DNA of 64,000 nucleotides from a virus (IMGVR_UViG_3300001199_000003:58537-122536), one strand, 5' to 3'; numbered from the stretch's first letter, positions 1 to 44,574 are shown. Numbers and translations are program-made. The notes: generated by a model from the letters alone, not told the origin.

Positions 1-759
1 ACTGCAAACGTAGCTGGAACCGCAGGTAACTCAATTTTACTTACCGGTGACGGAATCACAGATTTAGTAGGTCTTGCTAGCACATGGAACACGGCTAACC
101 CTGGGAACGACATTGGCAGTATTTCTGGCGACACATCTCAGATTTTGGATAACGGTGCAACTATCCAGCTGGCTGGAGCTATAAACTCAACTCCTGCTTT
201 CAATATGGCAGCAGTTCAAGTTGGTGATACGGTTAAAATAGGCAACGTATTTAATACACTAAATCAAGGTGAATTCAAGATCATCGCAAAAGGCTCAAAT
301 TCTTTCACGGTTGAAAATTATACCGGTGTCAACGAGGGCCCAATCACTCTAGGATCTACTTTTGCTGACCAAATTCGCATCTTTAGCGCTGCTGGCGTTC
401 AAGAGGGCGATACTTTAGTGATTTCTGAAGGATTCTCCTCAGTCACTTTTGGCTCTTACAAGATCACTGACGTAACCGACAATTATATTGAATTTTACAG
501 CACTGCCGTTCTGCCGCAAGAAACTGGTATCTCTTCTGAATTAGCTATTTACTCTCAAGCTAAGAATTTGGTCTATTTAGAGTCTAATCAGAAATGTACG
601 GTTACTCTTAATGGAACTCAAATGGCGGCTATGGAACCTTTCGTAATCAATAACTCTAAACAACCTGGCGTCTTCATGTTGAAGGCCACTGTTTATTCAT
701 TCACCGTTACAAATAACAGTTTAGACACAGCTTCTTGCTTTGTCGCAACTGTTGAATAA
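1..759 (+). CDS. hypothetical protein, 5' end outside window
   Basis: Frame 1 is open from nt 1 with no stop before the track Met at 145. The ORF therefore continues upstream of the window. No recognisable motif. Confidence 0.5.
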   Translation, partial: TANVAGTAGNSILLTGDGITDLVGLASTWNTANPGNDIGSISGDTSQILDNGATIQLAGAINSTPAFNMAAVQVGDTVKIGNVFNTLNQGEFKIIAKGSNSFTVENYTGVNEGPITLGSTFADQIRIFSAAGVQEGDTLVISEGFSSVTFGSYKITDVTDNYIEFYSTAVLPQETGISSELAIYSQAKNLVYLESNQKCTVTLNGTQMAAMEPFVINNSKQPGVFMLKATVYSFTVTNNSLDTASCFVATVE

Positions 760-763
760 CGAA

Positions 764-772
764 TGTGATATA
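764..772 (+). promoter_or_regulatory. TGTGATATA extended -10-like motif; ATG 8 nt after the hexamer (leaderless?)
   Basis: Intergenic TGTGATATAGG immediately upstream of the ATG at 781. Confidence 0.3.
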
Positions 773-780
773 GGTAGGCT

Positions 781-2655
781 ATGAGCGAAGACAATAAAAC
801 CACAACTTTTAAACAGCCGACCGCAGAAGCGGTAGCCGCTGCTGAAGCTATTTCCAATTCAGTAAAAAACAAGGTTTCTTTCGCTTTAAGTGGAGAAGCT
901 GCTGAAAAGATGGAGAAATCCGGCGGTTTTGCAGCTACTGAAGCTGGTCAATTGATGATGGCTTTAGAGCAGGCTACCGGCTCTGCTGGGCCAAAGAAAG
1001 CTCCAGCACTCGCTTTTACTGAAAATCCTGCTCCATCTGATAATTACCTGGGCCTTTATAAGTCTAAACGTCGTCTTTTACCGGATGAAGTTCTAAAACA
1101 GATCCGTGTCCAAGATCATTTGATCGCAGCCATCTTACGTGCTCGTGGTTCAATGATGTCACTTTTTGGTAATCTCCAAAAAGACCGTTTTGATGTTGGT
1201 GTTAATGTAAAAATCAAAGATGACTTCCAGAAAATCCTAACTCCAGAGCAATACGAGAAAGTCGTTGCTCGTATGAAGCGTTTTGAGCAATTGCTCCTTA
1301 ACTGCGGTCACACTGAAGGCCTTGAGCACCAGGATCGCAAGACACTTGCTGAGTACCTAGATCTTCAAGCTCGTAACGGTCTTACTTTTGGCCGATTCGC
1401 TACAGAGGTTATTTACGACCGTGATGCGTCAGCAGATGCTAATGGAAACTTTCCATTTTTTCGTTTCAGAGCTGTCGATGTAGCTACTATCGTTCGTGCA
1501 GTTCGTAAGGGCGAAGCTATCGGGAATAACCTTCGAGTTACAGCCCTTAGAGCGCTTGAATCTTTAACCGGTGAGAAGATCAAAATTGATCTAGAATCCC
1601 TTAAAGAAGACAAATATGCCTGGTTACAAGTCATTGACGGTACTCCGCGCCAAGCTTTCACACATGAAGAAATGCTTGTTTTTGATCTTTTTCCATCTAC
1701 TGATATTGAGCATAACGGTTATCCTGTTTCCCCTATTGATACTGTCGTTAGTTCTATTACCACTCATATTAGTATTGATGCTTATAAGAAGCTCTATTTT
1801 CAGAACGGTCGTGCGTCTAAAGGGATGCTCGTCATCCAATCAGACGAAGTAGATCAACAAACTCTCGATAATATGAAACTTCAGTTCAACGCGTCTATTA
1901 ATAGCGTGTCGAACTCATTCCGTACACCTATTTTCGGTGTTGGTAAAGAAGATACGGTTGAATGGCTTTCAATGGTTGGAGAAGGGGCTCGTGATGCTGA
2001 CTTCCAATTCATGTATGACCAAGTAGCTCGTAATATTCTTTCAGCCTTCTCGATCAGTCCAGATGAATTGCCAGGATATGGCCACTTATCCAAGGGTACT
2101 AATTCTCAGACACTTTCTGAGTCAAATAACGAATTCAAACTAACTGCAGCTCGTGACACTGGTCTAAGACCAATGATCCTGAAGTTCCAGACATTCTTTA
2201 ATCAACGCCTGTTCCCGATCATGGACCCACTTTTGGCCAAGATCTGTGAAGTCAAATTCGCAGGCTTAGATGCACAGTCAAAAGAACAAGAATCTGCCCG
2301 TCTTCAACAAGACATGGCAATTCACATGACTTATGACGAAGTTCTCCATGAAGCTGATAAAGATAAGGTCGGTAAAGCTGCTGGTGGACAAGTTCCTTTC
2401 AACGAAAGATATCAGTTAATTCTAGATAAATACATGGATGTGGGTGCAGTTCGTAGTCGCTTCTTTGGCGATCCAGGTGCGATGGTAGACCCGCTTCAGA
2501 AATATAAGCGTGATCCATTCTTTATTCAATGGCTACAGTTGTTAGCTCAGACTAATCCTGCAGCAGTCCAAGCGCTATTCGCACCTAAACCTTATGCGCT
2601 TGAATTCTTAAAAATGAACATTCAAGACGAAATAGATGGAGAAGATAATGTCTAA
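781..2655 (+). CDS. putative portal protein
   Basis: 624 aa. Size and position immediately upstream of a scaffold-like and a Mu-F-like head morphogenesis gene. No diagnostic motif recognised. Confidence 0.4.
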   Translation: MSEDNKTTTFKQPTAEAVAAAEAISNSVKNKVSFALSGEAAEKMEKSGGFAATEAGQLMMALEQATGSAGPKKAPALAFTENPAPSDNYLGLYKSKRRLLPDEVLKQIRVQDHLIAAILRARGSMMSLFGNLQKDRFDVGVNVKIKDDFQKILTPEQYEKVVARMKRFEQLLLNCGHTEGLEHQDRKTLAEYLDLQARNGLTFGRFATEVIYDRDASADANGNFPFFRFRAVDVATIVRAVRKGEAIGNNLRVTALRALESLTGEKIKIDLESLKEDKYAWLQVIDGTPRQAFTHEEMLVFDLFPSTDIEHNGYPVSPIDTVVSSITTHISIDAYKKLYFQNGRASKGMLVIQSDEVDQQTLDNMKLQFNASINSVSNSFRTPIFGVGKEDTVEWLSMVGEGARDADFQFMYDQVARNILSAFSISPDELPGYGHLSKGTNSQTLSESNNEFKLTAARDTGLRPMILKFQTFFNQRLFPIMDPLLAKICEVKFAGLDAQSKEQESARLQQDMAIHMTYDEVLHEADKDKVGKAAGGQVPFNERYQLILDKYMDVGAVRSRFFGDPGAMVDPLQKYKRDPFFIQWLQLLAQTNPAAVQALFAPKPYALEFLKMNIQDEIDGEDNV

Positions 2656-3298
2656 TTCACAAGTAAACTACAAACAGAAATATGAAGAACTTAAGATGAA
2701 GTTCATGGAGTCAGTCGATACTGCCTTCCGTCTTGGTTTTGAACAAGGTGCTGTGCAAGGTATGCAAGATGCTCAAATGCAGCAACAACAAGCTCAACAA
2801 GAAGCTGAACAGAATGCTGCTGGTATCGGCCAAGGCCAAGGTTCTGAGGGATCTCCTGCAGGCACTGAGCAGATGGAAAACCCAAATGGCGGAGGAATTG
2901 ATGATGTTCCAGATTCTGAGAATCCGGCTGGATCTGAGCTTGATCAACATATTGCTAAACTTGAATCTATGGTTTCTAAGTCTGAAACCCCTTTTGCTGA
3001 TTTAGCTAAAGCCATATCTGATCTTAAATCTGTTCGTAAGTCTCAGACTAACAACATCACTTTTGGCCGTGAAATGAAAAAGTCTACCCAAGCTATCTCT
3101 GGTATCGCAAAAGCTCTTCATAAGCCAGCTTTCAAGCTTAGTGTTCAGGCTTCTCATAATATGAATTCTAACGCTAAATCAGCGGTTGGGATGCAAGAGA
3201 AGATCGTCGGAGACATCATGAAATCATGGGCAGAAGAAGAGAAAACTGCAACTTCAGATATTCAAAAGATTTTAAATACGGTCCAGAAGAAGGATTAA
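2636..3298 (+). CDS. Gln/Glu-rich protein, possible scaffolding protein
   Basis: Low-complexity QQQQAQQEAEQ segment and an acidic region. Sits between the portal-like and head morphogenesis genes. The true start may be ATG at 2648. Confidence 0.35.
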   Translation: MEKIMSNSQVNYKQKYEELKMKFMESVDTAFRLGFEQGAVQGMQDAQMQQQQAQQEAEQNAAGIGQGQGSEGSPAGTEQMENPNGGGIDDVPDSENPAGSELDQHIAKLESMVSKSETPFADLAKAISDLKSVRKSQTNNITFGREMKKSTQAISGIAKALHKPAFKLSVQASHNMNSNAKSAVGMQEKIVGDIMKSWAEEEKTATSDIQKILNTVQKKD

Positions 3299-3552
3299 TT
3301 GTGATCCAGATACCTCCACATCTTAAATTGGACTTTGATTCATTGTCTTCTGCTCAACAGCAGAAGTTCATGGAATTAGCCCATTGGGGAGCTGCAGGTA
3401 GTCAGGGAAATTTAATTATTACGGACGCTTCTTTCGAGCGTATCTTCAACAGTATTAAGCAAATGGGCGAAGAGCCTTTAACTCCTATTGAGCCTGACAC
3501 TTCCGTAAATCACGATTGGGACTTTGATCCAAAGCAAAATAAGGGGCGCTAA
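3226..3552 (+). CDS. hypothetical protein
   Basis: Track ORF. Overlaps the upstream gene by 72 nt, so the real start may be GTG near 3301, which has an AAGAAGGA-like RBS. Confidence 0.4.
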   Translation: MGRRRENCNFRYSKDFKYGPEEGLIVIQIPPHLKLDFDSLSSAQQQKFMELAHWGAAGSQGNLIITDASFERIFNSIKQMGEEPLTPIEPDTSVNHDWDFDPKQNKGR

Positions 3553-4323
3553 ATGTTCGGCATGAATAGTTCTAGCAAGGAACAAATCGCCGAAGTAGTC
3601 GAAAAAATGTTCGACTCAATTGCGCTCCAGTTCATCGGTGATATTCCAAAACTCAAAGACAAGAAAATGCTCGTTATTAGCTCTAAGCGAAACTATGGCC
3701 TTAGCCATTTGTTCGTTCAGGCTATGCAAAATAAAACTCCTAACGCTCTTGAGCAAGACGTTCTTAAATCTCTCTTAGAGAGCGCTTACGGCTACATTGA
3801 ATCCCTTAAAAATAGAACCAAATCAAATGTTACAGAAAGACTTGATGGAATCGTGCGTGAAGCCAAATTAGGTGGAGCAGATGCTAACCCTGAAGCAATC
3901 CGTGATGTTTTGGCCGAAGAACTTGGGAAAGCTAGAAGTCACCTAAGGGCCATCGCAGAGTCCGAAGCTACTAAGCTCAGAAATCTTGGTACAATGATGG
4001 ATATTTCTCGTGTTGCAGCAAACCTGGGCGATCATGACCCTACGGTATTCTTTGTTGTGGTTAAAGATGGAAGTACCTGTAAAGAGTGTATTCGACTTCA
4101 TTTAATGCCAGATCAGATGACCCCTAGACTGTGGAAATTCTCAGAGCTTAAGCAGGGATACCATAAGCGTTCAGACAATAACCCCTCTGCTTTTGGCTTA
4201 CACCCTCACTGTCGATGTACGCTAACCTATCTATCATCTGGTTTCGGTTTCAACAAGCAAGGCCTTGTTTCTTATCAAAGTGAAGACTACGACGCTTACT
4301 CACGTCAAAGAAAAGCTAGCTAA
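3553..4323 (+). CDS. head morphogenesis protein, Mu gpF / SPP1 gp7-like
   Basis: C-terminal GLHPHCRCT resembles the conserved HPNCRC motif of the Phage_Mu_F family. Located downstream of the portal-like gene. Confidence 0.5.
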   Translation: MFGMNSSSKEQIAEVVEKMFDSIALQFIGDIPKLKDKKMLVISSKRNYGLSHLFVQAMQNKTPNALEQDVLKSLLESAYGYIESLKNRTKSNVTERLDGIVREAKLGGADANPEAIRDVLAEELGKARSHLRAIAESEATKLRNLGTMMDISRVAANLGDHDPTVFFVVVKDGSTCKECIRLHLMPDQMTPRLWKFSELKQGYHKRSDNNPSAFGLHPHCRCTLTYLSSGFGFNKQGLVSYQSEDYDAYSRQRKAS

Positions 4324-4335
4324 AAATTCTAATAT

Positions 4336-4344
4336 CTGATATAT
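4336..4344 (+). promoter_or_regulatory. CTGATATAT extended -10-like motif; same spacing to the ATG at 4353
   Basis: Variant motif 8 nt upstream of the ATG at 4353. Confidence 0.3.
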
Positions 4345-4349
4345 TCAGG

Positions 4350-5876
4350 TTGATGCAGTTTGAAATAATTTCACCCACTAAAGCCTATGTTGTTGACGCA
4401 ACACCCCTAGAAATTGAGTCTTTGACTAAATCGCTGAGTTACGTCAATACAGCGTTTAAGCACCAAGCAAAAAGACATTATGAAAACAAGTGGCTTAGAA
4501 ATAAGAATAAAATTGCCTGGGAAAAGAAGCTTGAAGAGCTTAAGTCTAGGATTAATAACTGCCTAGTGTTTACGGACGACAGCGGAAAACGCTTCATTCG
4601 TCCAGGTTCCATTCCTTATCTGGAAATCCCAGATAGCCAAATCAAAAATCTCATAGTTTACCCAAAACCTAAAAAAGTGCCATGGGCTAAGCCTTTACCG
4701 TTCGATCTTTACGATTACCAAGACATGTCAGTCGAAAAACTGATAGAAATCAAGCATGGTAGCGTAGAATTATGTACCGGTGCTGGTAAATCTGCCATTA
4801 TTTTGCAAATTTGCAGAGAAACTGGCTTTAAAACGTGCGTTATCGCACCTTCTCAATCAATTTTCAATGAATTGTTAGAAAAATTTGAACATCATCTTGG
4901 TAAAGATAAAGTTGGAGCCCTAGGAGACGGTAAGCGCCGTCTTGGGAAACGATTTACGATCTGTATTGGCGATTCCATTGCGAATCTTAAGCCTGGTTCT
5001 GCCGAATATGAAGAATTTGCTAAAATGGACATGATGATCGTTGATGAATCCCATACGTGGGGAGCTGATACTCTAGAAGCTATATGTCATGGCGTTCTTC
5101 AAGATGTTCCTTACCGCCTGTTCATGTCAGGTACGCAAACGCGTGGTGACGGCGCAGAGAGACTACTACAAAGTATTATAGGTAAGACAGTCCACACACT
5201 TACAACTAAAGAGGCTATCGCAGGTGGCTACATCTGTGACCATGATTTTACTATTGTGGATATTGAATCTTCTAATCCAAACATCCAATCTGGCGATATT
5301 CTTGAGATGAAGCGTATCCATTTCTTGCGTAATAAAAACGTAGCCGCCTTTATTGCTAAATTGGCCAACGCTTCTGCCATGGCTTCAAATCACCAGACAC
5401 TTGTTTTGGTCGAAGAGCTATCTCAGATTGCTATGCTAATTCCGTTACTTAAAGTACCTTACGCCTATGCTCATTCCGAATCATCTAAAATGAAGCTTGC
5501 AGAGCTAGAAGCGTCAAGCGGTGTTTTATTGGAAAAAGTAGATAGGGCTGATTCGGTTGAAAAATTCAATAAATCTGAAGCCAAAGTATTGATCGGGACT
5601 TCATGTATAGCGACTGGTACTAATATCTTTCCTACTCATAACACTTGTAACTGGGTTGGTGGATCTTCTGAGATCAAAACTAAGCAAGGAGCCGTGGGGC
5701 GTAGCGTCAGAAAAGATGGAGCTAACCCATGGCGTGATAAGTGTGCTCCTAAGCCTAAGTCTAAGATTTTCGACTTCAATATTTATGATCAATTCCCACT
5801 CAAAAAGATGCTCGAAGAGCGTATTCTGTGCTACCGTGATTCCGGTACGGAAATCAAGCGTATCAAGCTGAAATAG
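4350..5876 (+). CDS. superfamily-2 DNA/RNA helicase
   Basis: Walker A CTGAGKSAI, DExH box MIVDESHTW and a later motif VI-like segment. Confidence 0.7.
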   Translation: MMQFEIISPTKAYVVDATPLEIESLTKSLSYVNTAFKHQAKRHYENKWLRNKNKIAWEKKLEELKSRINNCLVFTDDSGKRFIRPGSIPYLEIPDSQIKNLIVYPKPKKVPWAKPLPFDLYDYQDMSVEKLIEIKHGSVELCTGAGKSAIILQICRETGFKTCVIAPSQSIFNELLEKFEHHLGKDKVGALGDGKRRLGKRFTICIGDSIANLKPGSAEYEEFAKMDMMIVDESHTWGADTLEAICHGVLQDVPYRLFMSGTQTRGDGAERLLQSIIGKTVHTLTTKEAIAGGYICDHDFTIVDIESSNPNIQSGDILEMKRIHFLRNKNVAAFIAKLANASAMASNHQTLVLVEELSQIAMLIPLLKVPYAYAHSESSKMKLAELEASSGVLLEKVDRADSVEKFNKSEAKVLIGTSCIATGTNIFPTHNTCNWVGGSSEIKTKQGAVGRSVRKDGANPWRDKCAPKPKSKIFDFNIYDQFPLKKMLEERILCYRDSGTEIKRIKLK

Positions 5877-5883
5877 CTTAAGA

Positions 5884-5892
5884 TGTGATATA
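5884..5892 (+). promoter_or_regulatory. TGTGATATA extended -10-like motif upstream of the sigma gene
   Basis: Motif 45 nt upstream of the ATG at 5937, with an AAGGAA RBS in the leader. Confidence 0.35.
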
Positions 5893-5936
5893 TCTCTTAT
5901 GAGCCCAAGCAAGGGCAAGTAAGGAATAATATCACC

Positions 5937-6977
5937 ATGTCGAAGTACAAAAAAACCGAAGTTTTCGATAACTCGTTTTACAAATTCGCAGAAGAAGTAA
6001 CTGAACGTATTAAAGCCAATAAGGACGGTACGGATCAGAAGCAGCAAGTGGAAGAACTACTTGATGCTGAGATCAAGTTTAAAGAGACTATTCTTAAATA
6101 TCGCCAGTCTACTAAAGTCTACATGAAGTTCTGGAATAAAGTCTGTATCACCAATAAGAATATCTTATCGGCGAGACCTTATTTTAGAGAAACCGCTATC
6201 GCCTTCAGTAAAGAAATCACCCCAGCCATTAAAATTACTGATATAGAAGCCATAAAAACTTTCGATATTAACTATCAACTTATTAAATTCATTAGAGACA
6301 ATTGGGAAGGCCCGTTCCCTGCGCGAGCCGAACAGCTATTTTGGCGTGTCCATAAAGCCCGCGAAGTCCTAATCGAAAATAACATGCCTTTAGCTATTAA
6401 CCGTGCGAAATTATTCTACAGAAAAACTCCAAAGTCCCATCTTACTCTTATGGATATGATCGGGATTTGCGGTATGGGTTTAGCTGCCGGTATTGATAAA
6501 TGGTGCGGTAAGTATTCTCCAGTCTTTAGATCGGTTTGTATTGGCCGAATGGTTGGAAATCTTATTGACAGTTATTCCGAGACCATGTTACACTTCTATC
6601 CAAGCGACAAGCGCGTCCTGTACAAAGCCCATACGATTAGAGGCCGCAGAGGGATAGATGAAATCCACGCACTTACCGCAGCAGTGAATCAATCCTTCAA
6701 AGACGATGGTCTAGAAGGAAAATCAGTTCCGAAGGAAGAGGTTACAGTCAGTGAACTTAGCTATCTTATGAGCGCAGCATCAACCGTTAGCGCCGACCAA
6801 ACAGTGAGTGTGAACGACGAAGGAAGCTTTGGAGTTTACGACTACACACCGGATGAGAGCCAAGACATTGAAGGTAATTACATGGAAATGGAAACTACTG
6901 CACACATGCTTGCTTTGGCTGCTAAATTACCATTATTACATAGAAAAGTTCTAAGATTAAAGGGGATAAAACTATGA
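5937..6977 (+). CDS. RNA polymerase sigma-70 family factor
   Basis: AINRAKLFYRKTPKSHLTLMDMIGICGMGLAAGIDKW...FRSVCIGRMVGNLI aligns with sigma-70 regions 2.1-2.4 (LVVSIAKKY...LDLIQEGNIGLMKAVDKF...FSTYATWWIRQAI). Confidence 0.55.
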   Translation: MSKYKKTEVFDNSFYKFAEEVTERIKANKDGTDQKQQVEELLDAEIKFKETILKYRQSTKVYMKFWNKVCITNKNILSARPYFRETAIAFSKEITPAIKITDIEAIKTFDINYQLIKFIRDNWEGPFPARAEQLFWRVHKAREVLIENNMPLAINRAKLFYRKTPKSHLTLMDMIGICGMGLAAGIDKWCGKYSPVFRSVCIGRMVGNLIDSYSETMLHFYPSDKRVLYKAHTIRGRRGIDEIHALTAAVNQSFKDDGLEGKSVPKEEVTVSELSYLMSAASTVSADQTVSVNDEGSFGVYDYTPDESQDIEGNYMEMETTAHMLALAAKLPLLHRKVLRLKGIKL

Positions 6978-7426
6978 GCGAACAAGTAAATCCAATACAT
7001 GGGACCAGAGATGGTGCAGAATGTCCTGGATGTTCACATGAAAGCCATTTTGAGGAGAAATCTATGAGTATTGAAAAAGATCGCACGGTAGGATATGCTC
7101 AACCAGGACCTAAAGCTCCTCCTCACGCTATGAACGGTAGATTTATTCTGGAAACCTACAAAGAAGATCGCGCTCTAAAAGCTACGGTTTCAAATGGTTT
7201 CGCTATGGTTCAACAGAAAGTGTCTCTCAAAGGCCTCACTGTTTTGGCTGATGTGTTTTCGCCTGTTAACGGTCAACCGCTTGCGCGTAGAGGCGATAAA
7301 GCTTTTATTCGTGAAGCATCTCTTCAGTCACAGCCATGGGCTAAAGCTTCTTTTACTGCAGATGGTATTGAAGGCGAGTTCATGATTGTTGAAATGACCT
7401 ATATCGAATTCGTGGATCATAAATAA
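6974..7426 (+). CDS. hypothetical protein
   Basis: Track ORF. Start overlaps the upstream stop (ATGA). Confidence 0.5.
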   Translation: MSEQVNPIHGTRDGAECPGCSHESHFEEKSMSIEKDRTVGYAQPGPKAPPHAMNGRFILETYKEDRALKATVSNGFAMVQQKVSLKGLTVLADVFSPVNGQPLARRGDKAFIREASLQSQPWAKASFTADGIEGEFMIVEMTYIEFVDHK

Positions 7427-8409
7427 TGAAAATCTTGCGAGTGGGCGACCCACACATTAGACCAAGCAATATTCCTGAAGCTGAGAAGCTCATGCAGTTT
7501 GTTTTGACTCTTGTCAAAAACGCAAAAGTTGACCGTCTTGAGCTGCTCGGCGATCTTTTCCATACTCACGCTGTAGTTAGATTAGAGGTTCTGGAGTTCT
7601 GGAATAAATGGCTCCAAGTGTTCTCTGATATAATAGAGACAGTGGTCCTTGTTGGGAACCATGACCAAGGCGGTGATCACCATTCTGGTACTCACGCGCT
7701 TGAGGTGTTCAAGAGGATCAACAGTGGAAAACTCAGAATCATCGACAGAGCAACAGTTATCGGACCTTTCCTCTATATGCCGTACATTCACGATGGAGGA
7801 GTATTCGTCAATACTGTACGCGGATTTAGTGGTAAGGAAGCCAGGATACTGGTGTGTCATCAAACCTTTAGCGGTTCACAGTTCGACAACGGATTTTACG
7901 CCCCAGAAGGAATCAATCCCGATGATATCCCATTTGATACCATCATCTCCGGCCATATCCACAAAGAGCAGGTTCTCGCGGGAGGAAAAGTTGATTATCC
8001 TGGCACTGCTAAGTGGGATACTGCTTCTGACGCTAATGAGCGTAAGGGTGTTTGGCTATATGAACACGACGATGTAACTGGAAAGGTTATTAATCGTGAC
8101 ATGATCTCTACCGAGAAAGTCGTAACCCCAATCGTGTCTTTTAAATGGATCGAAGGTGAAGAAGCTCCGGTAATCCCTGAAGGCGCTAAAGCATCCATCG
8201 AGCTTATTGGCTCAAGTGATTGGATTACTAAACAGAAGTCTAAACTTAAGGGCAAGGTCTCGATTAGCTCTAAATTTACAGATAAGAAAGAAAGAGCTAA
8301 CAGAGTAGTTGTTAAATCTTTTGAGATTTTCTTGACAGAATATTATGGCCCGTTGGACCCGAATCGTTACGCATTGATCGCTTTCGCTAAGGAGATCGGA
8401 ATTGTCTAG
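7426..8409 (+). CDS. sbcD: SbcD/Mre11-like metallophosphoesterase nuclease
   Basis: Calcineurin-like motifs: GDPH near the N-terminus, GDLFH, GNHD and GHIH. Confidence 0.65.
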   Translation: MKILRVGDPHIRPSNIPEAEKLMQFVLTLVKNAKVDRLELLGDLFHTHAVVRLEVLEFWNKWLQVFSDIIETVVLVGNHDQGGDHHSGTHALEVFKRINSGKLRIIDRATVIGPFLYMPYIHDGGVFVNTVRGFSGKEARILVCHQTFSGSQFDNGFYAPEGINPDDIPFDTIISGHIHKEQVLAGGKVDYPGTAKWDTASDANERKGVWLYEHDDVTGKVINRDMISTEKVVTPIVSFKWIEGEEAPVIPEGAKASIELIGSSDWITKQKSKLKGKVSISSKFTDKKERANRVVVKSFEIFLTEYYGPLDPNRYALIAFAKEIGIV

Positions 8410-8803
8410 TTCCACCGAAGAACAAGTCAGGGAAATGGCGAAATTGACGCTACTGACCAATAAGATGAATCCCATTCAGGAGAAAAACCTGAAGATGTAT
8501 CCACTTGTCTTTTTTAATGGAATTAAGTCGGCTAAGGTAGATTTTGACCTTTCAAACGATCAGATGTTAGTCGATAGTAACGAAAATAAGTCAGATCTGG
8601 AAATTACCTATCAATTTAACAAAGCAGAGACTCGACATCTCAGAGTTTCATACCATCTTGAAATTGAAGAAAACGCCGATAATAGCTCAATTGATGCTCG
8701 TTATTTGGCCATAACGAAGGCTGTCCGAAACCTTTTCTTTAAAGAGACAAAGGTCCAGGTGTTTATCAATGATAAGCTAGCCTATGAGAGTAAAAATGTC
8801 TGA
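8402..8803 (+). CDS. hypothetical protein
   Basis: Track ORF in the gene chain. Confidence 0.5.
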   Translation: MSSSTEEQVREMAKLTLLTNKMNPIQEKNLKMYPLVFFNGIKSAKVDFDLSNDQMLVDSNENKSDLEITYQFNKAETRHLRVSYHLEIEENADNSSIDARYLAITKAVRNLFFKETKVQVFINDKLAYESKNV

Positions 8804-9458
8804 AGAAAACAAACCAGCAGTAGTGGACAGCATATCTAACGATTTTACCCAGTATGATCTGGATACTATTAAAGCCTATCAAGAGAATGGCCTTCAGGGT
8901 ATAGACTCAGTTAATGAGAAACAGATAGAATCCATCTTAGAGATGTATCTTTCAGGTAAAACCTATCGTCAGATCGCTCTTACGATGCGAATGAAGAAAG
9001 AAATTGTCCTTTATTTGTCTTTTAAGTTCAATTGGTATGCTATCCGTAAGGATTATTTGACCGATATAGAAAATTCTATGCGGGATCGCGTATTAGAAGC
9101 TAGAATCGTCAATCAAGATTTCCTGCTTCAACTTCAAGCTATGTGGCAGAAAAAGATTGGAACTAAAATTGCTAAGTATCTATCTACCGATAACGAAGAA
9201 TTTGCTAACGAAATTGACCTTAAAGAAGTAGATAAGTATCTTAAGACCGTGGAACTATTGCAGAAACTTGCTGGAGAAGGTAAGCTTCCAGCTGACAATA
9301 ATCGTCCTCTAATTGGAGTGAACGCTGGTGATGGAGTAACTATTACTCGCACTGGCGAAAATTCTATGGAGATCACCCCTAAGAGTAAAGCTATCGGGGA
9401 TGCACTTAAAATGTTCGCCGATTCACGAAGAGAAGAAGAGAAAAAGCCGATTAAATAA
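8784..9458 (+). CDS. hypothetical protein with HTH-like segment
   Basis: Track ORF. GKTYRQIALTM looks like a helix-turn-helix. Terminase small subunit was considered but is not supported. Confidence 0.45.
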   Translation: MRVKMSEENKPAVVDSISNDFTQYDLDTIKAYQENGLQGIDSVNEKQIESILEMYLSGKTYRQIALTMRMKKEIVLYLSFKFNWYAIRKDYLTDIENSMRDRVLEARIVNQDFLLQLQAMWQKKIGTKIAKYLSTDNEEFANEIDLKEVDKYLKTVELLQKLAGEGKLPADNNRPLIGVNAGDGVTITRTGENSMEITPKSKAIGDALKMFADSRREEEKKPIK

Positions 9459-9462
9459 CATC

Positions 9463-9471
9463 TGTGATATA
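9463..9471 (+). promoter_or_regulatory. TGTGATATA extended -10-like motif
   Basis: TGTGATATAAG (TGa + TATAAG) 33 nt upstream of the ATG at 9504, with a GGAG RBS. Confidence 0.35.
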
Positions 9472-9503
9472 AGTAATTCAAGACCCACTGGGCAGGAGAA
9501 AAA

Positions 9504-10475
9504 ATGAAAAACGCACTTAAATTTACACTGAGCTTGATGCTCGTTGCCTTTATGGTAGCGGTTCCTGCTCAAGCAGGGGCGATTAAAAAGATCGTTCTTA
9601 CTTCAGACAATACACTCAGTCTTAATGATGCTGTTACTGGCGCTTCAGTTGCTGAAGTTATCACTAAAGCTAAAGAACTGGACAGTAGCTTTGGTGTTTA
9701 CGCCACTATTACCGGCAAGAAAGATATCTATTTTTATCTTCGCACTCCAGGTGGATCAATTCAATCCGGCCTTGAGATGTTTGAAGCTCTTAATGGCCTT
9801 GATCGTCCAGTTCACACTATTACTAGCTTTGCAGCTTCTATGGGTTTCCAGACGGTTCAAAACCTTGGAAAACGCTATATTGTTAAAAGCGGTGTTTTGA
9901 TGTCCCACAGAGCGTCAGGTGGATTTGAAGGATCATTTGGTGGACAAAAACCGAGCCCAATGGACTCTCAAAAGAACTTCTGGGAACAACGTCTTCACGA
10001 AATGGATATGAAAACCGTAGAGCGCACTAAAGGTAAGCAAACTCTAGCTTCTTACCAAGCTCAATACGCTCCTGATATGTGGTTAACCGGTACTCAAGCT
10101 GTTGAGCAAGGATATGCTGACGAAGTTGTTCAAGTTCAGTGCGATTCATCTTTGGCCGGAGTGACTACTAAATCTGTGAATTTCATGGGTTTAATCAATA
10201 TCAACTACGACCTTGATAATTGTCCTTTAAATTCTACTCCAATGAATATCCGTATTTCTCGTATCGCTACCAATAAAGGTGAAATGGACTTTAATAAGTT
10301 TCAAGCTGCTGGCGGCGGATACGGTGTTGACTGTCTAATCGCTTCTGGTACTGATAAAACTAAGGTTTGTGCTACTAACACTTCCCTTAATGCTGAAAGA
10401 ATATATGGTCTTAAAAATGAATTCCGTAATTACTATATGGATATTAAAGGCCAAGTAAAGAACTTCAGATATTAA
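9504..10475 (+). CDS. secreted ClpP-class (S14/S49-like) serine protease
   Basis: N-terminal signal peptide MKNALKFTLSLMLVAFMVAVPAQAG. ClpP-type active-site block ITSFAASMGF. Four cysteines in the C-terminal part. Confidence 0.45.
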   Translation: MKNALKFTLSLMLVAFMVAVPAQAGAIKKIVLTSDNTLSLNDAVTGASVAEVITKAKELDSSFGVYATITGKKDIYFYLRTPGGSIQSGLEMFEALNGLDRPVHTITSFAASMGFQTVQNLGKRYIVKSGVLMSHRASGGFEGSFGGQKPSPMDSQKNFWEQRLHEMDMKTVERTKGKQTLASYQAQYAPDMWLTGTQAVEQGYADEVVQVQCDSSLAGVTTKSVNFMGLININYDLDNCPLNSTPMNIRISRIATNKGEMDFNKFQAAGGGYGVDCLIASGTDKTKVCATNTSLNAERIYGLKNEFRNYYMDIKGQVKNFRY

Positions 10476-10476
10476 T

Positions 10477-10728
10477 ATGCCACTTATTGCTTACGCATGT
10501 AAATGCGGAAACATTGACAAGAAATTCGTGAGGCAGGCTAAAGATGCGCCTGCCTCTTTCCTTTGTCCCGTCTGTAATGAAAATCAATTAAAAAAACAGT
10601 TGTCATCTCCCTCTTCTTCTAGTAAGATCACAGTAGATAATGGTGTCCAAGCTCGCGCAGTCGAGATTACGCCTGATATTATTGAGATTAACAAAGCTAG
10701 ATCCGAAAAGGATTACAGAGAGGATTAA
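10477..10728 (+). CDS. small zinc-ribbon protein
   Basis: CKCGN...CPVCN pair of CxxC motifs. Confidence 0.45.
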   Translation: MPLIAYACKCGNIDKKFVRQAKDAPASFLCPVCNENQLKKQLSSPSSSSKITVDNGVQARAVEITPDIIEINKARSEKDYRED

Positions 10729-12936
10729 GTGTTAAAACTTAAGCAACTTCGCATCAACGGCATTGCTACGTTTGTTGAAGAACAGACTATCAATCTAGAA
10801 AATCTTGGCCATTTAATTCAAGTCGATGGAGAGAACCGGAATACCGGAGGATCTTCAGGTGCAGCTAAATCCAGCGTATTCAATGCTTTGGACTATCTCT
10901 TCGGAGTCAACGATCTACCTACTACTGTCCTTCAATCCAGATATACGAAAGAACCTTTAAGTGTCATTGGAGATCTGGATTGGGATGGCCAATCTGTAAC
11001 TGTTTCGCGTTCTAAGAAGGGATTCAGTATCGAAATAAATGGAAATATTATCGAAGGATCGAGTAAGCTTACAGAAGAGAAGCTTGACGAGATTATCGGT
11101 ATGCCTCGTGATCTTTTCCGTAAGATCCTCCATAAGCGACAAAAAGAGGGTGGATTCTTTCTTAATTTCACTCCCAAGCAAATGTATGAATTTCTGACCG
11201 ATGCCTTAAATATGGCTGAAGAGCGCAAAAAGCTCGAAAAAGTTGAAGCAAAGCTTTCTGAGCTTGAAAAATCTAAAGCCGCAAAAGAGAGCATCGTTAC
11301 TGGTCTAAGATCTAGCGTAAAAGCTACTCAGGAGTCGATCCTTGCTCTTGGCCTACCTCCAGTGCGAGATATTCACCAATCGGTTATTTTAGAGCTTAAA
11401 ACTAAGATGGATGCCAGCACAGATGCTTTGGTTAAAGTCCAGGAAGGCCATAAACTAGCAAACGAGTTCTTAGATAGCCAACGACCAGTCCTTATCCCTA
11501 ATCCGACCCTGGAAGCTCCAGAACAGCTTCCTCAGCCAGAATTGATGCAGGCTACTTTAGATAATCAAGCTGAGATTGCTAGTATTGAAAATCAAATATC
11601 TGCTTTAAATAAAGAGATTTCAGAGATTAAGCAAGCTGAAGCTGAACGAATCAAGAAAGTAACAGCTTCTATTCAGGAAAGAAAGCTGAATTTGTCGGTT
11701 TTATCCCACAAATGTACGATTGCCGGTACAGCTAAAGATGAAGCAGCTAAGATTGCAGGTGAAATCAAGAGTATTCGTGATGCAATTTGCCCTACCTGCG
11801 AACAGAGTTGGGTTACTGACACCGCAAAAGTCAAAGAAGCCGAGTTTATGGCGAAATTGACTCAATATAAAGCTCAAATTCAAGAGGGCGCATCTGCCGA
11901 AAACACTATCCAAAACATCAAATCTGAGGTGGAATCGCTCGAAAAAGAGCTAAAACCTCAAGGTTTAGACGATATTTCTGAGAAAAACAATGCTTTGATG
12001 GGGTATAATTCGCAATTATCGTCCGAAAAAGACAAAGCAAACGCATATAAAGCCGAAATTTCAATTAAAAACGCCGAAATCTTGAAAAATCATGCTGAAA
12101 AGCAGAAAGCGATCAATTATGAAGTATCAAATCGTAATGCTGGTATTTTGGCTGACATTTCTGCTAAAAATAAAGCGGCTTCTGACGATTATCAGTTCAA
12201 AGTTACCGCAGTCAGAGAGACCCAGGCACGCGAATTAGATCAAGCCAGGGGCCAATCTGACGTAGATCGCAGAGCTTTTGAGGCTGCTGCTTCAAAACTT
12301 AAACTGTTCACAGATTCTTTGGCTAGATATGAGTCATCTATTAAGACAATGAGAGAGCAAGAAACAAACTATTCTTTATCTTTGGCCAAAGCTGAAGAAG
12401 ATTTTGAGTTACTTTTACAACAAATTTCAATGGCTGAAGAATTACGTAAAGCAGTGAAACTATTCATTTCTATTTCGTTCGATAGAGCTTTAGAGAACAT
12501 TGGAGACGCTGCAACTAAAATTATCCGTTGCGTTCCTACCATGTCTAATGCTACAATACAGTTTGAAGGCCAGAAAGAGACCAAAGAAGGCAAGATAAAA
12601 GAAGAAGTGAACGCCGTTATCAGTATGAATGGCGACATCGGAATCCCTATCAAGTCATTGTGCGGTGGAGAAAGATCTTCAACCGACCTAGCTGTAGATT
12701 TGGCTGTAATCGAGTTTATCGAGGAACAGACAGGTAAAGGCATAGACATCTTTATTCTTGACGAACCATTCACAGGATTAGATACTGTAGGGATTGAGAT
12801 GGTACTTGAATTTTTGAGAAACTTAACCAGCACCAAGAAACTGATTATCGTGGACCACAATCCAGAAGTCAAAGAAATGGTCAGTGATCGAATAGTTGTC
12901 GTGCGAGAAGGTAATTCTAGTACGATAGCAAGCTAG
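10729..12936 (+). CDS. sbcC: SbcC/Rad50-like SMC ATPase
   Basis: N-terminal P-loop region, a long central coiled coil with a CPTC zinc-hook motif near the midpoint, and a C-terminal FILDEPFTGLD Walker B/D-loop. GTG start. Confidence 0.65.
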   Translation: MLKLKQLRINGIATFVEEQTINLENLGHLIQVDGENRNTGGSSGAAKSSVFNALDYLFGVNDLPTTVLQSRYTKEPLSVIGDLDWDGQSVTVSRSKKGFSIEINGNIIEGSSKLTEEKLDEIIGMPRDLFRKILHKRQKEGGFFLNFTPKQMYEFLTDALNMAEERKKLEKVEAKLSELEKSKAAKESIVTGLRSSVKATQESILALGLPPVRDIHQSVILELKTKMDASTDALVKVQEGHKLANEFLDSQRPVLIPNPTLEAPEQLPQPELMQATLDNQAEIASIENQISALNKEISEIKQAEAERIKKVTASIQERKLNLSVLSHKCTIAGTAKDEAAKIAGEIKSIRDAICPTCEQSWVTDTAKVKEAEFMAKLTQYKAQIQEGASAENTIQNIKSEVESLEKELKPQGLDDISEKNNALMGYNSQLSSEKDKANAYKAEISIKNAEILKNHAEKQKAINYEVSNRNAGILADISAKNKAASDDYQFKVTAVRETQARELDQARGQSDVDRRAFEAAASKLKLFTDSLARYESSIKTMREQETNYSLSLAKAEEDFELLLQQISMAEELRKAVKLFISISFDRALENIGDAATKIIRCVPTMSNATIQFEGQKETKEGKIKEEVNAVISMNGDIGIPIKSLCGGERSSTDLAVDLAVIEFIEEQTGKGIDIFILDEPFTGLDTVGIEMVLEFLRNLTSTKKLIIVDHNPEVKEMVSDRIVVVREGNSSTIAS

Positions 12937-12945
12937 GAGAAATAA

Positions 12946-13293
12946 ATGGCCAATATGAGTATGATTGAACAAGAAATTCGGCAGTATCTGGAGGATCAGG
13001 AAAACCTGGGTAGAGCAGATCGCTATGTTCATCTTAAAGCTATATTTGATAAGCACTTAGCGATGGAAAAAACTGAACACCTATTGACAATGAGTGATTT
13101 TCACCATATTGTAAGCACTGCAAAACAGAACTTTGTTCATTTGACTTTGCCTATGACCATCTCAAACAGAGATCTAAATCCAAACGAAGCTCCTAATGTG
13201 GCATTGACAGAAGCTGTGATATCTTATCTGAACAAGGCCGGTATCCTTAGGAAATTAGTCAAAATCGACGTAACGACAAAAACAAGCAAATAG
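12946..13293 (+). CDS. hypothetical protein
   Basis: Track ORF with an RBS. Confidence 0.5.
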   Translation: MANMSMIEQEIRQYLEDQENLGRADRYVHLKAIFDKHLAMEKTEHLLTMSDFHHIVSTAKQNFVHLTLPMTISNRDLNPNEAPNVALTEAVISYLNKAGILRKLVKIDVTTKTSK

Positions 13294-13302
13294 GAGAGAA
13301 AC

Positions 13303-13518
13303 ATGGAACAAGAAGTAAAGAAAGAAACTATTAAAATGGACCCTCAATTGCGAAGAAAGGCGATGGTTAACTCTGGCGTTCTCGCTATGCAGTTTGCCAT
13401 GGTTTCATTTGTGTCATTGAAGTCTGGAGCAACATTCCTAGGAATTATTGGCCTACTAGCAACGGTTGGCACAATCAACGATACGTTAACTTTTTACTAC
13501 GCTAACAAGGAGAAATAA
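13303..13518 (+). CDS. small membrane protein
   Basis: Hydrophobic segments. Confidence 0.4.
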   Translation: MEQEVKKETIKMDPQLRRKAMVNSGVLAMQFAMVSFVSLKSGATFLGIIGLLATVGTINDTLTFYYANKEK

Positions 13519-13520
13519 TC

Positions 13521-13802
13521 ATGCGTGACGATAAATTGGAAAGTAAGGTTTTTAAACTTCCTGGTGGGAAAGAATTCAAAGAAGAAGCTGACCGTCTAGG
13601 TGCAGTTGAGCTTGAAGACTATATCGTAAGACTTCAAAAAGGTCTTGATGAGTCTCGTCTTCACAAAGAAGAAAATATTGCCCTTAAGAATGCTAGAGAC
13701 GAAGTAGCTCAGCTTTCTGGTCCATATACTGACGTTGAGAAAGCGGTCAAAATCAAGACCAAATATCTCATCGAATGTCTTAAGGAAAAAGGTAAGGCTT
13801 AA
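13521..13802 (+). CDS. hypothetical protein
   Basis: Track ORF. Confidence 0.45.
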   Translation: MRDDKLESKVFKLPGGKEFKEEADRLGAVELEDYIVRLQKGLDESRLHKEENIALKNARDEVAQLSGPYTDVEKAVKIKTKYLIECLKEKGKA

Positions 13803-14434
13803 TGGATTCAATGCGCGTACTCTCTTTAGATATGTCCTCTAAGACCGGATGGGCGTTAATTACCTCATCCGATGAGGGCTACACTCTAGTTGAGTCGGGC
13901 ATTATCGTTAAGTCATCCGAACCAGCTGGTCAGTACCCGTCTAATTACGTGGACTGGGCTTATCAGGTTTTTAACGAGATTCTAAATCTCATCAATAGGC
14001 TTGAGCCAGATGCTCTGGTTATTGAAGAAACCGTTGCAGGATCTAAGCAAGTCTATTCACAGAAGATTCTGGAATGGATTCACTTTTTGGTCGCACAATT
14101 CATTAAAAAGTCTGGAATCAAAGCTACTTACCTACTAACGGGATCTTGGCGTTCTGAAGTTGGCTGTGTTATGACCAAAGAAGAGAAGATTCGTAATAAG
14201 ACCGTTCGTGATCAGAAGAAAGCTAAAGAGAAAGAGACTGGCGTTAAGCCGATGGCTGCCTATGATATAAATGGTAAGAGGATAGGGATAGTGAACAAGA
14301 AACACGTCAACATCCGAAGAGCAAATGAGGTATTTGAAAAGTTCCTCAAAAAGCCTCTTCAGAAGAAAGATGAAGACGAGGCAGATGCCATGTTACTTGC
14401 CTACTGTTATCATTTAAGGAGAACTAAAATATGA
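13802..14434 (+). CDS. RuvC-like Holliday junction resolvase
   Basis: LSLDMSSKTGWALI (catalytic Asp block), VIEETVAG (Glu) and C-terminal DEADAMLLAY (DxxDA motif). Confidence 0.55.
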   Translation: MDSMRVLSLDMSSKTGWALITSSDEGYTLVESGIIVKSSEPAGQYPSNYVDWAYQVFNEILNLINRLEPDALVIEETVAGSKQVYSQKILEWIHFLVAQFIKKSGIKATYLLTGSWRSEVGCVMTKEEKIRNKTVRDQKKAKEKETGVKPMAAYDINGKRIGIVNKKHVNIRRANEVFEKFLKKPLQKKDEDEADAMLLAYCYHLRRTKI

Positions 14435-15399
14435 ACTATTTCAATGATGGGGACGATGACGGATCTGATTTCCGTGACATCCCTGACGAAGTAGCTGGAC
14501 AAGATGCCGGAGTTCCGCAAGTTAGAGTAAATCGACCTGCGCCTGCTCCTCAACCAGTTCAGCAACAACCGGAGCCCGAAGTGGAATACGAAGAAGAGCC
14601 TTCTGAAGAAGAACAAGAGGAAGACTTTGCGAGTATCCTAAGCGATGCCCGTCAACGTATGGAACAAGGCCGTATCTATGAGGTTCTCATGGATCACGAT
14701 CTTTTCTCTGGCCAAGGGTTTGACGAGAAAGCCGTTAAATACGTAACTAAGCAGATTCGCAATTTTGCTAAAGAGCAAATGGAGATCATGCTTGGTATGC
14801 GTTCGGAAGCACCTAAAGCTAATGTTTTCCAAGCTTCAGATTTCCCTTTTAACGATGCGGAAGTTGCAGCTCTTAAAGATCTAGCTTATGTAGCCTCTAA
14901 AGGTGCTACAGCCAGAGATGACGCACAGACCTTTACTCCTCAAGCAGCAGTTCAAGTTGCTCCGAGACGTACTGGATTGAATCCTATCGCGGTAAAGCAA
15001 GCTCCTAAACCAGCTCCAAGACCATCTGCTCCCGCAGCAAAACCTGCACCCAAGCCTTTAGCTAAACAAGCTCCAGCACCGGTAAAACGTGATCCTAAGA
15101 CAGAAGCAGCTATTGAGCAGATTCTGAGAGAAGAAGGGATTACCCGTGAAGAATATGAGCGTCAGTATCCACCTGGATACAAGCCACTTCCTAAACCGCT
15201 TCAGAATATGAATGAGCAGGAATTAGCTGAGTGGAAACGTCAAGATGCGTTAAAAACTAAAGCACAGGTTAAGAGCAGTTTCGCTATTCCTATGCCAAGC
15301 GCCGAACAAGAAGAAATGCTACATACGCAACGTGCAAATACAGCAGCTCAAAACCCACAAATGCAAGTTTTAATGGCCGCATTAACTAAGAAGAAATAG
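14431..15399 (+). CDS. acidic / Pro-Ala-Lys-rich protein
   Basis: Acidic N-terminus and PAPAPQP / KPAPKP low-complexity segments. Confidence 0.5.
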   Translation: MNYFNDGDDDGSDFRDIPDEVAGQDAGVPQVRVNRPAPAPQPVQQQPEPEVEYEEEPSEEEQEEDFASILSDARQRMEQGRIYEVLMDHDLFSGQGFDEKAVKYVTKQIRNFAKEQMEIMLGMRSEAPKANVFQASDFPFNDAEVAALKDLAYVASKGATARDDAQTFTPQAAVQVAPRRTGLNPIAVKQAPKPAPRPSAPAAKPAPKPLAKQAPAPVKRDPKTEAAIEQILREEGITREEYERQYPPGYKPLPKPLQNMNEQELAEWKRQDALKTKAQVKSSFAIPMPSAEQEEMLHTQRANTAAQNPQMQVLMAALTKKK

Positions 15400-15423
15400 T
15401 AGTAACTACTAAGGAGAAAGAAA

Positions 15424-15972
15424 ATGAGTAATCAACAGCAAGACAAACGTACAGCTTCACAACGTATCGACGATATGGAAAGAGGCTTAATGGCTCTTTA
15501 CCAAACCGCTGACAATATGGCTCGTGATCTTATGACCATTAAAGAAGCTATCAAGCTCATTGGAAATAAGTTAGATTCAGTTGTTAAAGCATCTTCTCGT
15601 GGGGAAGCTTTGAATGACGAAGTGATTGCTAAGATCATGGTAGAAAATAACGTAGAAGAACTGAAAGAAAAAGTAACTAACCTTGTGAATCAAGGCGTTC
15701 TAGTTGCCGCAGAAGAAGTTGGACCGAACAGCTTCGTTGTTGGCCGAGAAATTGATGAAAATGGCGTAGTTGCAAATCCTCGTATGCAATTCGTTGTTTC
15801 TGCTCTTGGAGCTGAAGTTAAAGATAAGTTCCCAGGCGCTAAAGCTGGCCAAACACTTGAGCTTCAAGAAGGTAAATGGAAATTTGAAGTTCAAGAAGTC
15901 TACAATATTCAGACTCCAGAACAGCAAGCTCCATCACAAGCACAAGAGGCAGCTGCCCCATCTGAATCCTAA
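15424..15972 (+). CDS. hypothetical protein
   Basis: Track ORF with an AGGAGA RBS. Confidence 0.5.
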   Translation: MSNQQQDKRTASQRIDDMERGLMALYQTADNMARDLMTIKEAIKLIGNKLDSVVKASSRGEALNDEVIAKIMVENNVEELKEKVTNLVNQGVLVAAEEVGPNSFVVGREIDENGVVANPRMQFVVSALGAEVKDKFPGAKAGQTLELQEGKWKFEVQEVYNIQTPEQQAPSQAQEAAAPSES

Positions 15973-15979
15973 TTAGGGG

Positions 15980-21825: not shown

Positions 21826-22044
21826 ATGACAGTTTGGGTTCTTACTGCAGAACATAATGATTACGACCAACACGGTGAGTATTTCATTAATGTTTTCTAT
21901 AAAAAACCAGATGTTATTCAGATCTCAGCTATTTTAGGCGAGGAAGTTTCTTTCGAGTATTGTCAACATATCGTCGATAAAGGCGGTAGGACCGATAAAA
22001 TGGAAAACGTGTGGTATAACTTAACAGAGGTAACGCCGCTATGA
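21826..22044 (+). CDS. hypothetical protein
   Basis: Track ORF. Confidence 0.4.
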   Translation: MTVWVLTAEHNDYDQHGEYFINVFYKKPDVIQISAILGEEVSFEYCQHIVDKGGRTDKMENVWYNLTEVTPL

Positions 22045-38993: not shown

Positions 38994-39016
38994 GATATTA
39001 AAACACTGAGGGATCT

Positions 39017-44568: not shown

Positions 44569-44574
44569 TTTTTT

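Follow-up and report, generated by a model that had tools for sequence, protein, structure and literature searches.

Promoters of the extended -10 class, known for Escherichia coli sigma-70 and as the "-16 region" of Gram-positive sigma-A, need no -35 box; their motif reads T-17 R-16 T-15 G-14, any one nucleotide (nt) and then the -10 hexamer, and transcription starts 7 nt after the hexamer (PMC7403470). For example, the Thermus phages P23-45 and phiYS40 have middle and late promoters of this type without a -35 box, which host sigma-A reads after gp39 disables -35 recognition (PMC7403470). Here, we describe a recurrent motif, TGTGATATA, in IMGVR_UViG_3300001199_000003:58537-122536, a 64,000-nt stretch of viral DNA that was analyzed over its full length (the window). 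The motif stands in the gaps before genes for a portal protein, a helicase, a sigma-like protein and a ClpP-like protease, and is very probably a conserved promoter element of the extended -10 type. It is a well-supported regulatory feature and not an unprecedented one, since the extended -10 class is already known.

The window is, as judged from its sequence, part of a large phage that is distant kin of Myxococcus phage Mx1. A megablast search with its first 10 kilobases (kb) against 50,697 phage records returned no match, and the phage is not a sequenced isolate. Mx1 (169.6 kb) is its closest named relative, recognizable at the protein level only, with a portal that is 47.6% identical; SPO1-like portals share only 22-25% identity with the window portal. 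A literature search with TGTGATATA as a string returned unrelated papers only, the paper on the Mx1 genome merely announces the sequence and analyzes no promoters, and the clade is without published promoter work. The sites described here amount to a promoter map, open to testing, for a group of phages that is found worldwide and has had no experimental study.

In register the window motif is identical to the extended -10 class, as emerged from the comparison with -35-less promoters that an earlier, sequence-only reading of this DNA had proposed. It differs from that class in that positions -8 and -7 are unconstrained, T-7 is missing at three of the four sites and many members sit on the start codon. 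The resemblance to P23-45 and phiYS40 lies in phage promoters of extended -10 class that lack a -35 box. Many phiYS40 middle and late transcripts are also reportedly leaderless. Unlike those phages, the window phage is of an unrelated lineage with a mesophile-like host, has no identified gp39- or AsiA-like factor, and encodes its own sigma factor together with a second -35-less motif, AATCTTA. Leaderless transcription from a promoter next to the gene also has precedents. The classic leaderless mRNA is that of lambda cI, made from PRM. In Deinococcus-Thermus, a "-10 region adjacent to the ORF" lets transcription start on the start codon of the open reading frame (ORF) (PMC12340547). The window motif is like both in placing a -10 element immediately before ATG, and unlike both in being a phage-specific subset defined by a motif, while other window genes use strong Shine-Dalgarno (SD) sequences, and in that the same orthologous gene alternates between leaderless and leadered forms among relatives. 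The T4 gp55 late promoter, TATAAATA, and the -10 element GATATT of SPO1 gp33/34 serve here as leads only. What they have in common with the window motif is a short element limited to the -10 region and the setting of a large phage with a divergent sigma factor, and GATATT occurs at several helicase sites; unlike in T4 and SPO1, the late genes and the sigma-bearing Mx1 go with AATCTTA instead.

A motif kept before the same four genes

Exact copies of TGTGATATA lie at 764-772, 5884-5892 and 9463-9471, all on the + strand, and the fourth site is TCTGATATA at 4335-4343, with its TGaTATA core from 4337. All four read TGaTATAnn, the first feature expected of the extended -10 class. The sequence-only reading had listed these intergenic sites at 764, 4336, 5884 and 9463, correctly to within 1 nt. 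As a bare 9-mer TGTGATATA is only marginally enriched, with three copies observed against 0.66 expected (4 of 100 shuffles reach three), and with one mismatch allowed there are 17 copies against 15.8. Such figures would suit a chance product of AT-rich intergenic composition, and it is the placement of the copies that speaks against it. Ten copies of the TGATATA core occur in the window, four of them in the ~6% of bases that are intergenic. For the + strand gaps, a first-order Markov model predicts 0.34 copies of TGATATA against the four observed (Poisson P ~4e-4), and each of the four short gaps in the first 10 kb (21, 29, 60 and 45 nt) holds a copy in the sense direction (post-hoc P ~6e-11; these gap statistics were computed analytically). 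The pattern TGTGNTATA is present five times against 1.37 expected; every copy is in + orientation with a gene start no more than 50 nt downstream, and two of them, at 21789 and 22010, are additional sites. The flanks of the four sites have nothing in common outside the motif, which argues against copies of a repeated mobile element.

Searches of IMG/VR with the portal and sigma sequences, together with one NCBI metagenome contig, yielded ~50 related loci (designated L002, L005 and so on). Their G+C content (GC) ranges over 32-66% and their protein identity over 35-95%, and the contigs are up to 177 kb long. Counts in these relatives are of orthologous sites and overstate the number of independent events. 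In the upstream regions of the window and 15 non-redundant related loci, TGATATA ranks first of all 7-mers (36 of 164 regions, 13.9-fold), and 52 of 165 copies of TGATAT[AT] are intergenic, compared to 7% of bases. Across the ~50 loci, TGATAT[AT] recurs before the same four genes, and this orthologous conservation holds although protein identity varies over 39-95% and GC over 32-50%. At the portal gene, TGATATA and ATG are separated by exactly 8 nt in ten relatives; the spacer sequences differ (GGTAGGCT, TGATTAAT, GGTACTAT, GAGGCTAT and others), and the stop codon that precedes them is at varying distances. At the helicase gene, TGATAT[ATG] is followed by 7-10 nt and ATG in 16 sequences. The sigma gene has the motif 7-11 nt (mostly 8) before its ATG in 15 sequences, while ~9 sequences, including the window, have 25-45-nt leaders with an SD sequence. 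Twelve of 15 relatives have the motif before their orthologue of the ClpP-like gene, even where protein identity is as low as 39%, and the leaders there measure 23-58 nt. The sbcD gene, which has no gap before it and served as a control, never carries the motif in the relatives examined, and for the intragenic window copies at 6239 and 7624 conservation ends at the nearest relative. With TGATATA as the top 7-mer across relatives, orthologous positions kept despite variable flanks and intragenic copies not conserved, an origin by chance is effectively refuted.

When the nucleotides between each motif copy and the next ATG are counted, the profile has a sharp peak at 8 nt (16 of 92 copies), with 33 of 92 at 6-9 nt, compared to flat profiles for five control 7-mers. 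The distances observed form two groups, one of 7-10 nt and one of 23 nt or more in which an SD sequence is present. One interpretation of the fixed distance to start codons is that the motif acts in RNA, either as a translation-initiation region (an A/U-rich enhancer and a weak SD sequence) or as the loop of an RNA operator or processing site. The G-rich, SD-like bases 3' of the motif and its position in the loop of a covarying hairpin at leaderless-type sigma genes would fit such a role. Nevertheless, we consider an RNA-level function improbable, because the motif also stands 23-58 nt from start codons that have their own SD sequence, no hairpin flanks the portal or helicase sites, and a T-17/R-16 extension with an occasional -35 box is a feature of DNA recognition. 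Its placement in relatives in which a module of genes is inverted argues in the same direction. Their divergent intergenic regions of 66-72 nt contain two back-to-back motifs, 12-25 nt apart, one serving a leaderless-type helicase gene and the other a GroEL-like gene via a 26-37-nt leader with an SD sequence. These regions must hold two promoters and nothing else is conserved in them, which points to the motifs as the promoters; copies on opposite strands, with no upstream transcript, are not expected of an RNA element. In addition, the motif is found 7 and 11 nt before the 5' ends of tRNA-Ala genes (L010 16988-17001 and L020 20579-20596, both on the - strand), which excludes a purely translational role. 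The primary transcript would start at, or a few nt before, the mature tRNA-Ala 5' end.

Extended -10 architecture and leaderless geometry

Positions outside the pattern by which sites were selected conform to the extended -10 register: -17 is T in 22 of 26 sites and -16 is a purine in 21 of 26, with TG at three of the four window sites and TC at the helicase site. T-12 A-11 T-10 A-9 are invariant among the selected sites, and the interval from -30 to -37 has zero information content. The 66-72-nt divergent regions are too short to fit a -35 box. Some relatives have TTGnnn -35 boxes at 16-17 base pairs (bp) from a TGATATAAT core, and at the ClpP-like orthologue of L055 the motif is accompanied by a TTGACT -35 box. 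A scan of positions 1-16000 for consensus sigma-70 promoters and terminators found no enrichment, left the four sites undetected and found no -35 box at any of them. The same scan found no terminators, suggesting that the window sites are internal promoters in read-through arrays.

We propose that the four sites are the -10 regions of one -35-independent class, T-17 R-16 T-15 G-14 A-13 T-12 A-11 T-10 A-9 N N, and that they would act as internal promoters in co-directional gene arrays without upstream terminators. Membership in a single promoter class, which the sequence-only reading had suggested, finds support in the orthologous conservation, the fixed spacing to ATG with varying flanks, T-17/R-16, and the divergent and tRNA placements. 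The motif, its placement, conservation and geometry are observed, and from them transcription starts, leaderless mRNAs and the choice of sigma factor are inferred. The combination of one -35-independent class, reading by the host primary sigma factor and leaderless transcripts at the portal and helicase genes is, as a whole, moderately probable and the reading that we favor.

At the portal gene, GATATA ends at 772 and ATG begins at 781, leaving 8 nt, with the ATG at the seventh base after the hexamer TATAGG. At the helicase gene, GATATA ends at 4343 and ATG begins at 4353, leaving 9 nt, with the ATG at the eighth base after TATATT. A spacing of exactly 8 nt had been claimed for both genes and applies to the portal only; the distances of 45 and 33 nt to the ATG codons at 5937 and 9504, each with an SD sequence, were given correctly. 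The A of the portal and helicase ATG codons would lie at, or 1 nt off, the canonical start 7-8 nt after the hexamer (for the portal, a predicted +1 at A781), and the transcripts from these promoters would be leaderless 5'-AUG mRNAs. On this geometry, leaderless transcripts at the two genes are likely. The earlier suggestion of "leaderless mRNAs or mid-operon boosts" is consistent with both the geometry and the absence of terminators.

An in-frame stop lies one codon upstream of ATG 781, and a separate gene call in L022 picks the same portal ATG. The helicase N-terminus, MQFEI.., is conserved from ATG 4353, and the adjoining TTG at 4350 is not conserved in relatives. Both start codons are ATG, in a window where ~12% of genes start with GTG or TTG; in relatives, leaderless-type sites came from a search restricted to ATG and are no independent test of a preference for AUG. 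The SD duplex energy upstream of the helicase gene is -3.1 kcal/mol, rank 74 of 95 genes. The G-rich bases between motif and ATG are mostly 2-4 nt before the ATG, too close for a good SD sequence, and at genes other than the portal could presumably be discriminator contacts. At the portal, the GG at -8/-7 may complete the hexamer and act as an SD sequence at the same time.

The same element would give the sigma-like and ClpP-like genes leaders of ~25-36 nt with an SD sequence, which in the predicted ClpP-like leader is AGGAG (9494-9498). Among relatives the sigma gene switches between the 8-nt and the 25-45-nt arrangement, indicating that the motif is independent of the SD sequence. Close relatives in which the same gene is either leaderless or SD-led form a natural series that could be useful for studying the evolution of leaderless translation. 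In L022, an independent caller put the sigma start at ATG 10001, which overlaps the motif (TGATATATGGGGGTTATG) and lies three codons before the conserved MSK start (10010). Leaderless geometry thus misleads standard start prediction, and since it accounts for this mis-called start, attention to it should allow better calling of gene starts.

Several observations weigh against the reading that we favor. T-7 is missing at three of the four window sites (only TATATT at the helicase has it) and is unconserved overall (A 9, G 9, T 7, C 1), which is unusual for primary-sigma promoters; outside the alpha-proteobacteria, T occupies -7 in 90-99% of promoters (PMC7703639). An apparently invariant A-13 is also unusual for a primary sigma factor, although this position is inside the TGATAT selection pattern. 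The portal site retains an SD-like UAGGUAGG of mid-range duplex energy (-5.8 kcal/mol, rank 54 of 95 genes), at a position where relatives that lack the motif show TAAGGTAA. The portal is therefore probably translated from read-through mRNA too, and this mRNA may be its main template. The overstated number of independent events in relatives belongs with these points.

Which sigma factor reads the motif

The ORF at 5937-6977 is, by fold prediction and homology, a divergent sigma-70-family protein. It is 33% identical to the "putative RNA polymerase sigma factor" of Mx1 (E 2e-57). When its AF2 (AlphaFold2) model, with a predicted local distance difference test score (pLDDT) of 74.8, was compared with the PDB by Foldseek, almost all of the top 50 matches were sigma chains of RNA polymerase holoenzyme or initiation complexes (probability 0.94-1.00), and the best were sigma-A/sigma-70 chains, consistent with a sigma domain 2/3 fold in the model. 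Pfam (Sigma70_r2/r4) had no match for this protein or 21 homologues, the Mx1 homologue matched Sigma70_r2 at E 9e-4, below the cut-off, and a PDB sequence profile gave weak matches to sigma region 2 only (E 0.4-0.6); the sigma identity comes from the fold search and the Mx1 homology. The domain 4 region of the model consists of three short helices (311-341), ~36 residues after a disordered, low-confidence linker (282-313), and such a C-terminus is shorter than a canonical sigma domain 4. The protein has more than 1000 metagenomic homologues and is 70-93% identical across phages that share the motif.

This protein might itself read the four promoters, with domains 2 and 3 and a remnant of domain 4, in a manner that needs no -35 box. 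In that case the sigma factor would activate its own gene, with weak recognition of the helicase promoter (which has T at -7) by the host as the initial trigger. The sigma-70-family fold of the protein, the presence of only ~36 residues after the linker and the 70-93% identity among phages with the motif would agree with this. So would a motif without T-7, atypical for a primary sigma factor (PMC7703639), and the fact that T-7 is mostly kept at helicase sites and not at portal, sigma or ClpP-like sites. We nevertheless regard reading by the phage sigma as doubtful. Up to and including the sigma gene, TGTGATATA is the only promoter class present, and a strictly phage-sigma-dependent promoter could therefore not be started. 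The T-17 R-16 T-15 G-14 motif with TTGACT or TTGnnn boxes is a signature of primary sigma factors. We also count against this possibility that the region 2.3-2.4 residues for a TATAAT-type -10 element are presumably replaced in the phage protein, according to a manual alignment with E. coli sigma-70.

A second -35-less motif offers the phage sigma a different target. [GC]nAATCTTA is the next most enriched 7-mer motif after TGATATA in upstream regions, and it precedes terminase, prohead-protease-like, endolysin and homing-endonuclease genes and the gene before the portal, at 5-7 nt from ATG or at 16-48 nt with an SD sequence. In 72 kb of Mx1 (55% GC) there are six AATCTTA copies, all on the coding strand, five of which are at most 40 nt before a start, including that of the portal gene, and there is no promoter-like TGATATA copy even though the sigma homologue is present. 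The window contains no AATCTTA copy in a promoter context. Mx1 and high-GC relatives keep the sigma factor without TGATATA promoters, while AATCTTA persists in Mx1 and marks late genes. AATCTTA is accordingly the better candidate for the target of the phage sigma.

Of the two readers that the sequence-only reading had left open, host sigma-70 or the phage sigma, the evidence leans to the host, given the co-occurrence of TTGnnn boxes, the bootstrapping problem and AATCTTA in Mx1. If the element is a promoter, the host primary sigma factor probably reads it. Host RNA polymerase would recognize TRTG through sigma domain 3, with no -35 contact needed. The restriction to TGTGATATA upstream of the sigma gene, coupled with the TTGnnn and TTGACT boxes, suggests as the most economical cascade one that leads from host sigma to phage sigma to late genes: the host factor at TGTGATATA would allow the phage sigma (5937-6977) to be made, and this would switch on AATCTTA late promoters. 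The two motifs together hence suggest a simple regulatory program.

Alternatively, we speculate that the Mx1-like clade (~165-175 kb), which is widespread and uncultured, runs on two -35-less classes, TGTGATATA and AATCTTA, that are interchangeably leaderless or leadered, with TGTGATATA read by the phage sigma in a self-reinforcing manner and the sigma factor expressed in two ways. This joint scheme seems unlikely to us. The two modes of sigma expression within it are equally tentative; one would be the gene's own leaderless transcript and the other a read-through helicase-sigma mRNA on which a covarying hairpin that has the motif in its loop masks the sigma AUG until a ribosome translating the helicase opens it.

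Gene layout, sigma leader and variant sites

The window has 41% GC, with + strand genes densely packed to ~57.3 kb and tail-fibre genes on the - strand thereafter. Features of the locus and the AATCTTA copies in other genomes are collected in Table 1.

Table 1. Predicted features of the window, with AATCTTA positions in relatives and Mx1
Feature	Position	Strand	Details
End of an upstream gene	...-759		
Predicted promoter element before portal gene	764-774	+	T-17 G-16 T-15 G-14 A-13, then -10 hexamer TATAGG (769-774)
Portal, 624 amino acids; candidate leaderless mRNA	781-2655	+	PF04860 and PHROG portal matches
Two small genes	2636-3552		
MuF-like gene	3553-4323		
Predicted promoter element before helicase gene	4335-4345	+	TCTGA, then -10 hexamer TATATT (4340-4345), T at -7
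DEAD/ResIII helicase; candidate leaderless mRNA	4353-5876	+	N-terminus MQFEI.. kept from this ATG
Predicted promoter element before sigma-like gene	5884-5894	+	TGTGA, then TATATC; predicted start ~5899-5901
Predicted sigma-gene leader	5899-5936	+	Mini-ORF, hairpin, SD; read from the sequence and compared with L002 and L006
Divergent sigma-70-family protein, 346 amino acids	5937-6977	+	Mx1 homology and fold search
Small gene	6974-7426		
SbcD-like gene	7426-8409		
Two small genes	8402-9458		
Predicted promoter element before ClpP-like gene	9463-9473	+	TGTGA, then TATAAG; predicted start ~9480
ClpP-like protease, hydrophobic N-terminus	9504-10475	+	Heads a compact gene array in which SbcC is also encoded
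Possible further member, TGTGGTATAAT	21789-21799	+	Within the last part of the preceding gene; the start at 21826 follows after 29 nt
Possible further member, TGTGGTATAAC	22010-22020	+	23 nt before the start at 22041
Full -35/-10 promoter of a different class, for the second ClpP-like gene at 39017	38971-38999	+	TTGACA (38971-38976), 17-bp spacer, TGaGATATT
Variant TGATATG	44083-44089	+	53 nt upstream of the tmRNA (transfer-messenger RNA) gene
AATCTTA in relatives	L020 6573; L010 7857 and 20896; L012 19546; L006 3322		
AATCTTA in Mx1	8592, 28836, 30703, 37568, 48186		Record coordinates

Relatives have a gene of 314-405 amino acids, with a weak tail-fibre-like match, and the window ORF called at 145-759 is equivalent to its C-terminal two-thirds. 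The window start probably falls inside this gene, and its AATCTTA promoter would be just outside the window. The helicase-sigma-SbcD module (4353-9458) is co-directional with, and 3' of, portal and MuF in the window and its closest relatives (L002, L005 and L006). In most other relatives (L010-L020 and L022) it is inverted and diverges from an array of GroEL-like, terminase and portal genes, and in Mx1 it sits upstream of the terminase. SbcC, a methyltransferase, DNA polymerase, SSB, UvsX and DnaB are encoded 3' of the ClpP-like gene. There are two ClpP-like protease genes in the window, 9504-10475 with a predicted TGTGATATA promoter and 39017-39739 with a full -35/-10 promoter, and neither product resembles the 1239-amino-acid "prohead protease" annotated in Mx1.

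The predicted sigma leader has a hairpin, GCCC-AAGCAA-GGGC (5903-5916), and the SD sequence AAGGA (5921-5925). A mini-ORF at 5899-5922 (seven codons, MSPSKGK*) begins 6 nt after GATATA, where relatives have the leaderless sigma ATG. We rejected it as a functional ORF, as it is not conserved (it has a three-codon form in L006 and is absent from L002); it may be a remnant from an ancestor that was leaderless.

At leaderless-type sigma genes (L011, L014, L022, L043, L051, L053, L057 and others), a covarying inverted repeat has the motif in its loop and arms such as CCCT/AGGG, CCCA/TGGG, GTCTG/CAGAC, ATCCTAA/TTAGGAT and TATTAGCGC/GCGTTAGTA. The 5' arm covers the helicase stop codon and the 3' arm extends into the sigma ATG. 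The hairpin at this helicase-sigma junction has a mean stem of 6.4 bp, compared to 4.3 bp in shuffled flanks, and a mean RNAfold z of -2.0; the window has a weak counterpart at ~5879-5899. From its position, the hairpin could serve translational coupling or masking on read-through mRNA. A hairpin-loop function was rejected as a general explanation of the motif, since the inverted repeat flanks it at sigma genes only.

Two weaker variants had been proposed elsewhere in the window. The one at 38990 is not a variant of this motif; a full promoter of another class, with a -35 box, is found there (at 38989). The one at 44080 stands as TGATATG, a form that also precedes the helicase gene in L010, and the tmRNA gene said to follow it after 54 nt is indeed present, at a distance of 53 nt. 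ARAGORN found no tRNA or tmRNA in the window, whereas Rfam finds both and places the tmRNA at 44143-44568 (75.4 bits). Together with a tRNA at 44803-44883 (81 nt), the tmRNA occupies a non-coding stretch of 1.3 kb (44022-45302), which contains further GC-rich structured segments and, at its end, a terminator-like hairpin and a TTGACA-17-TACTAT promoter (~45255).

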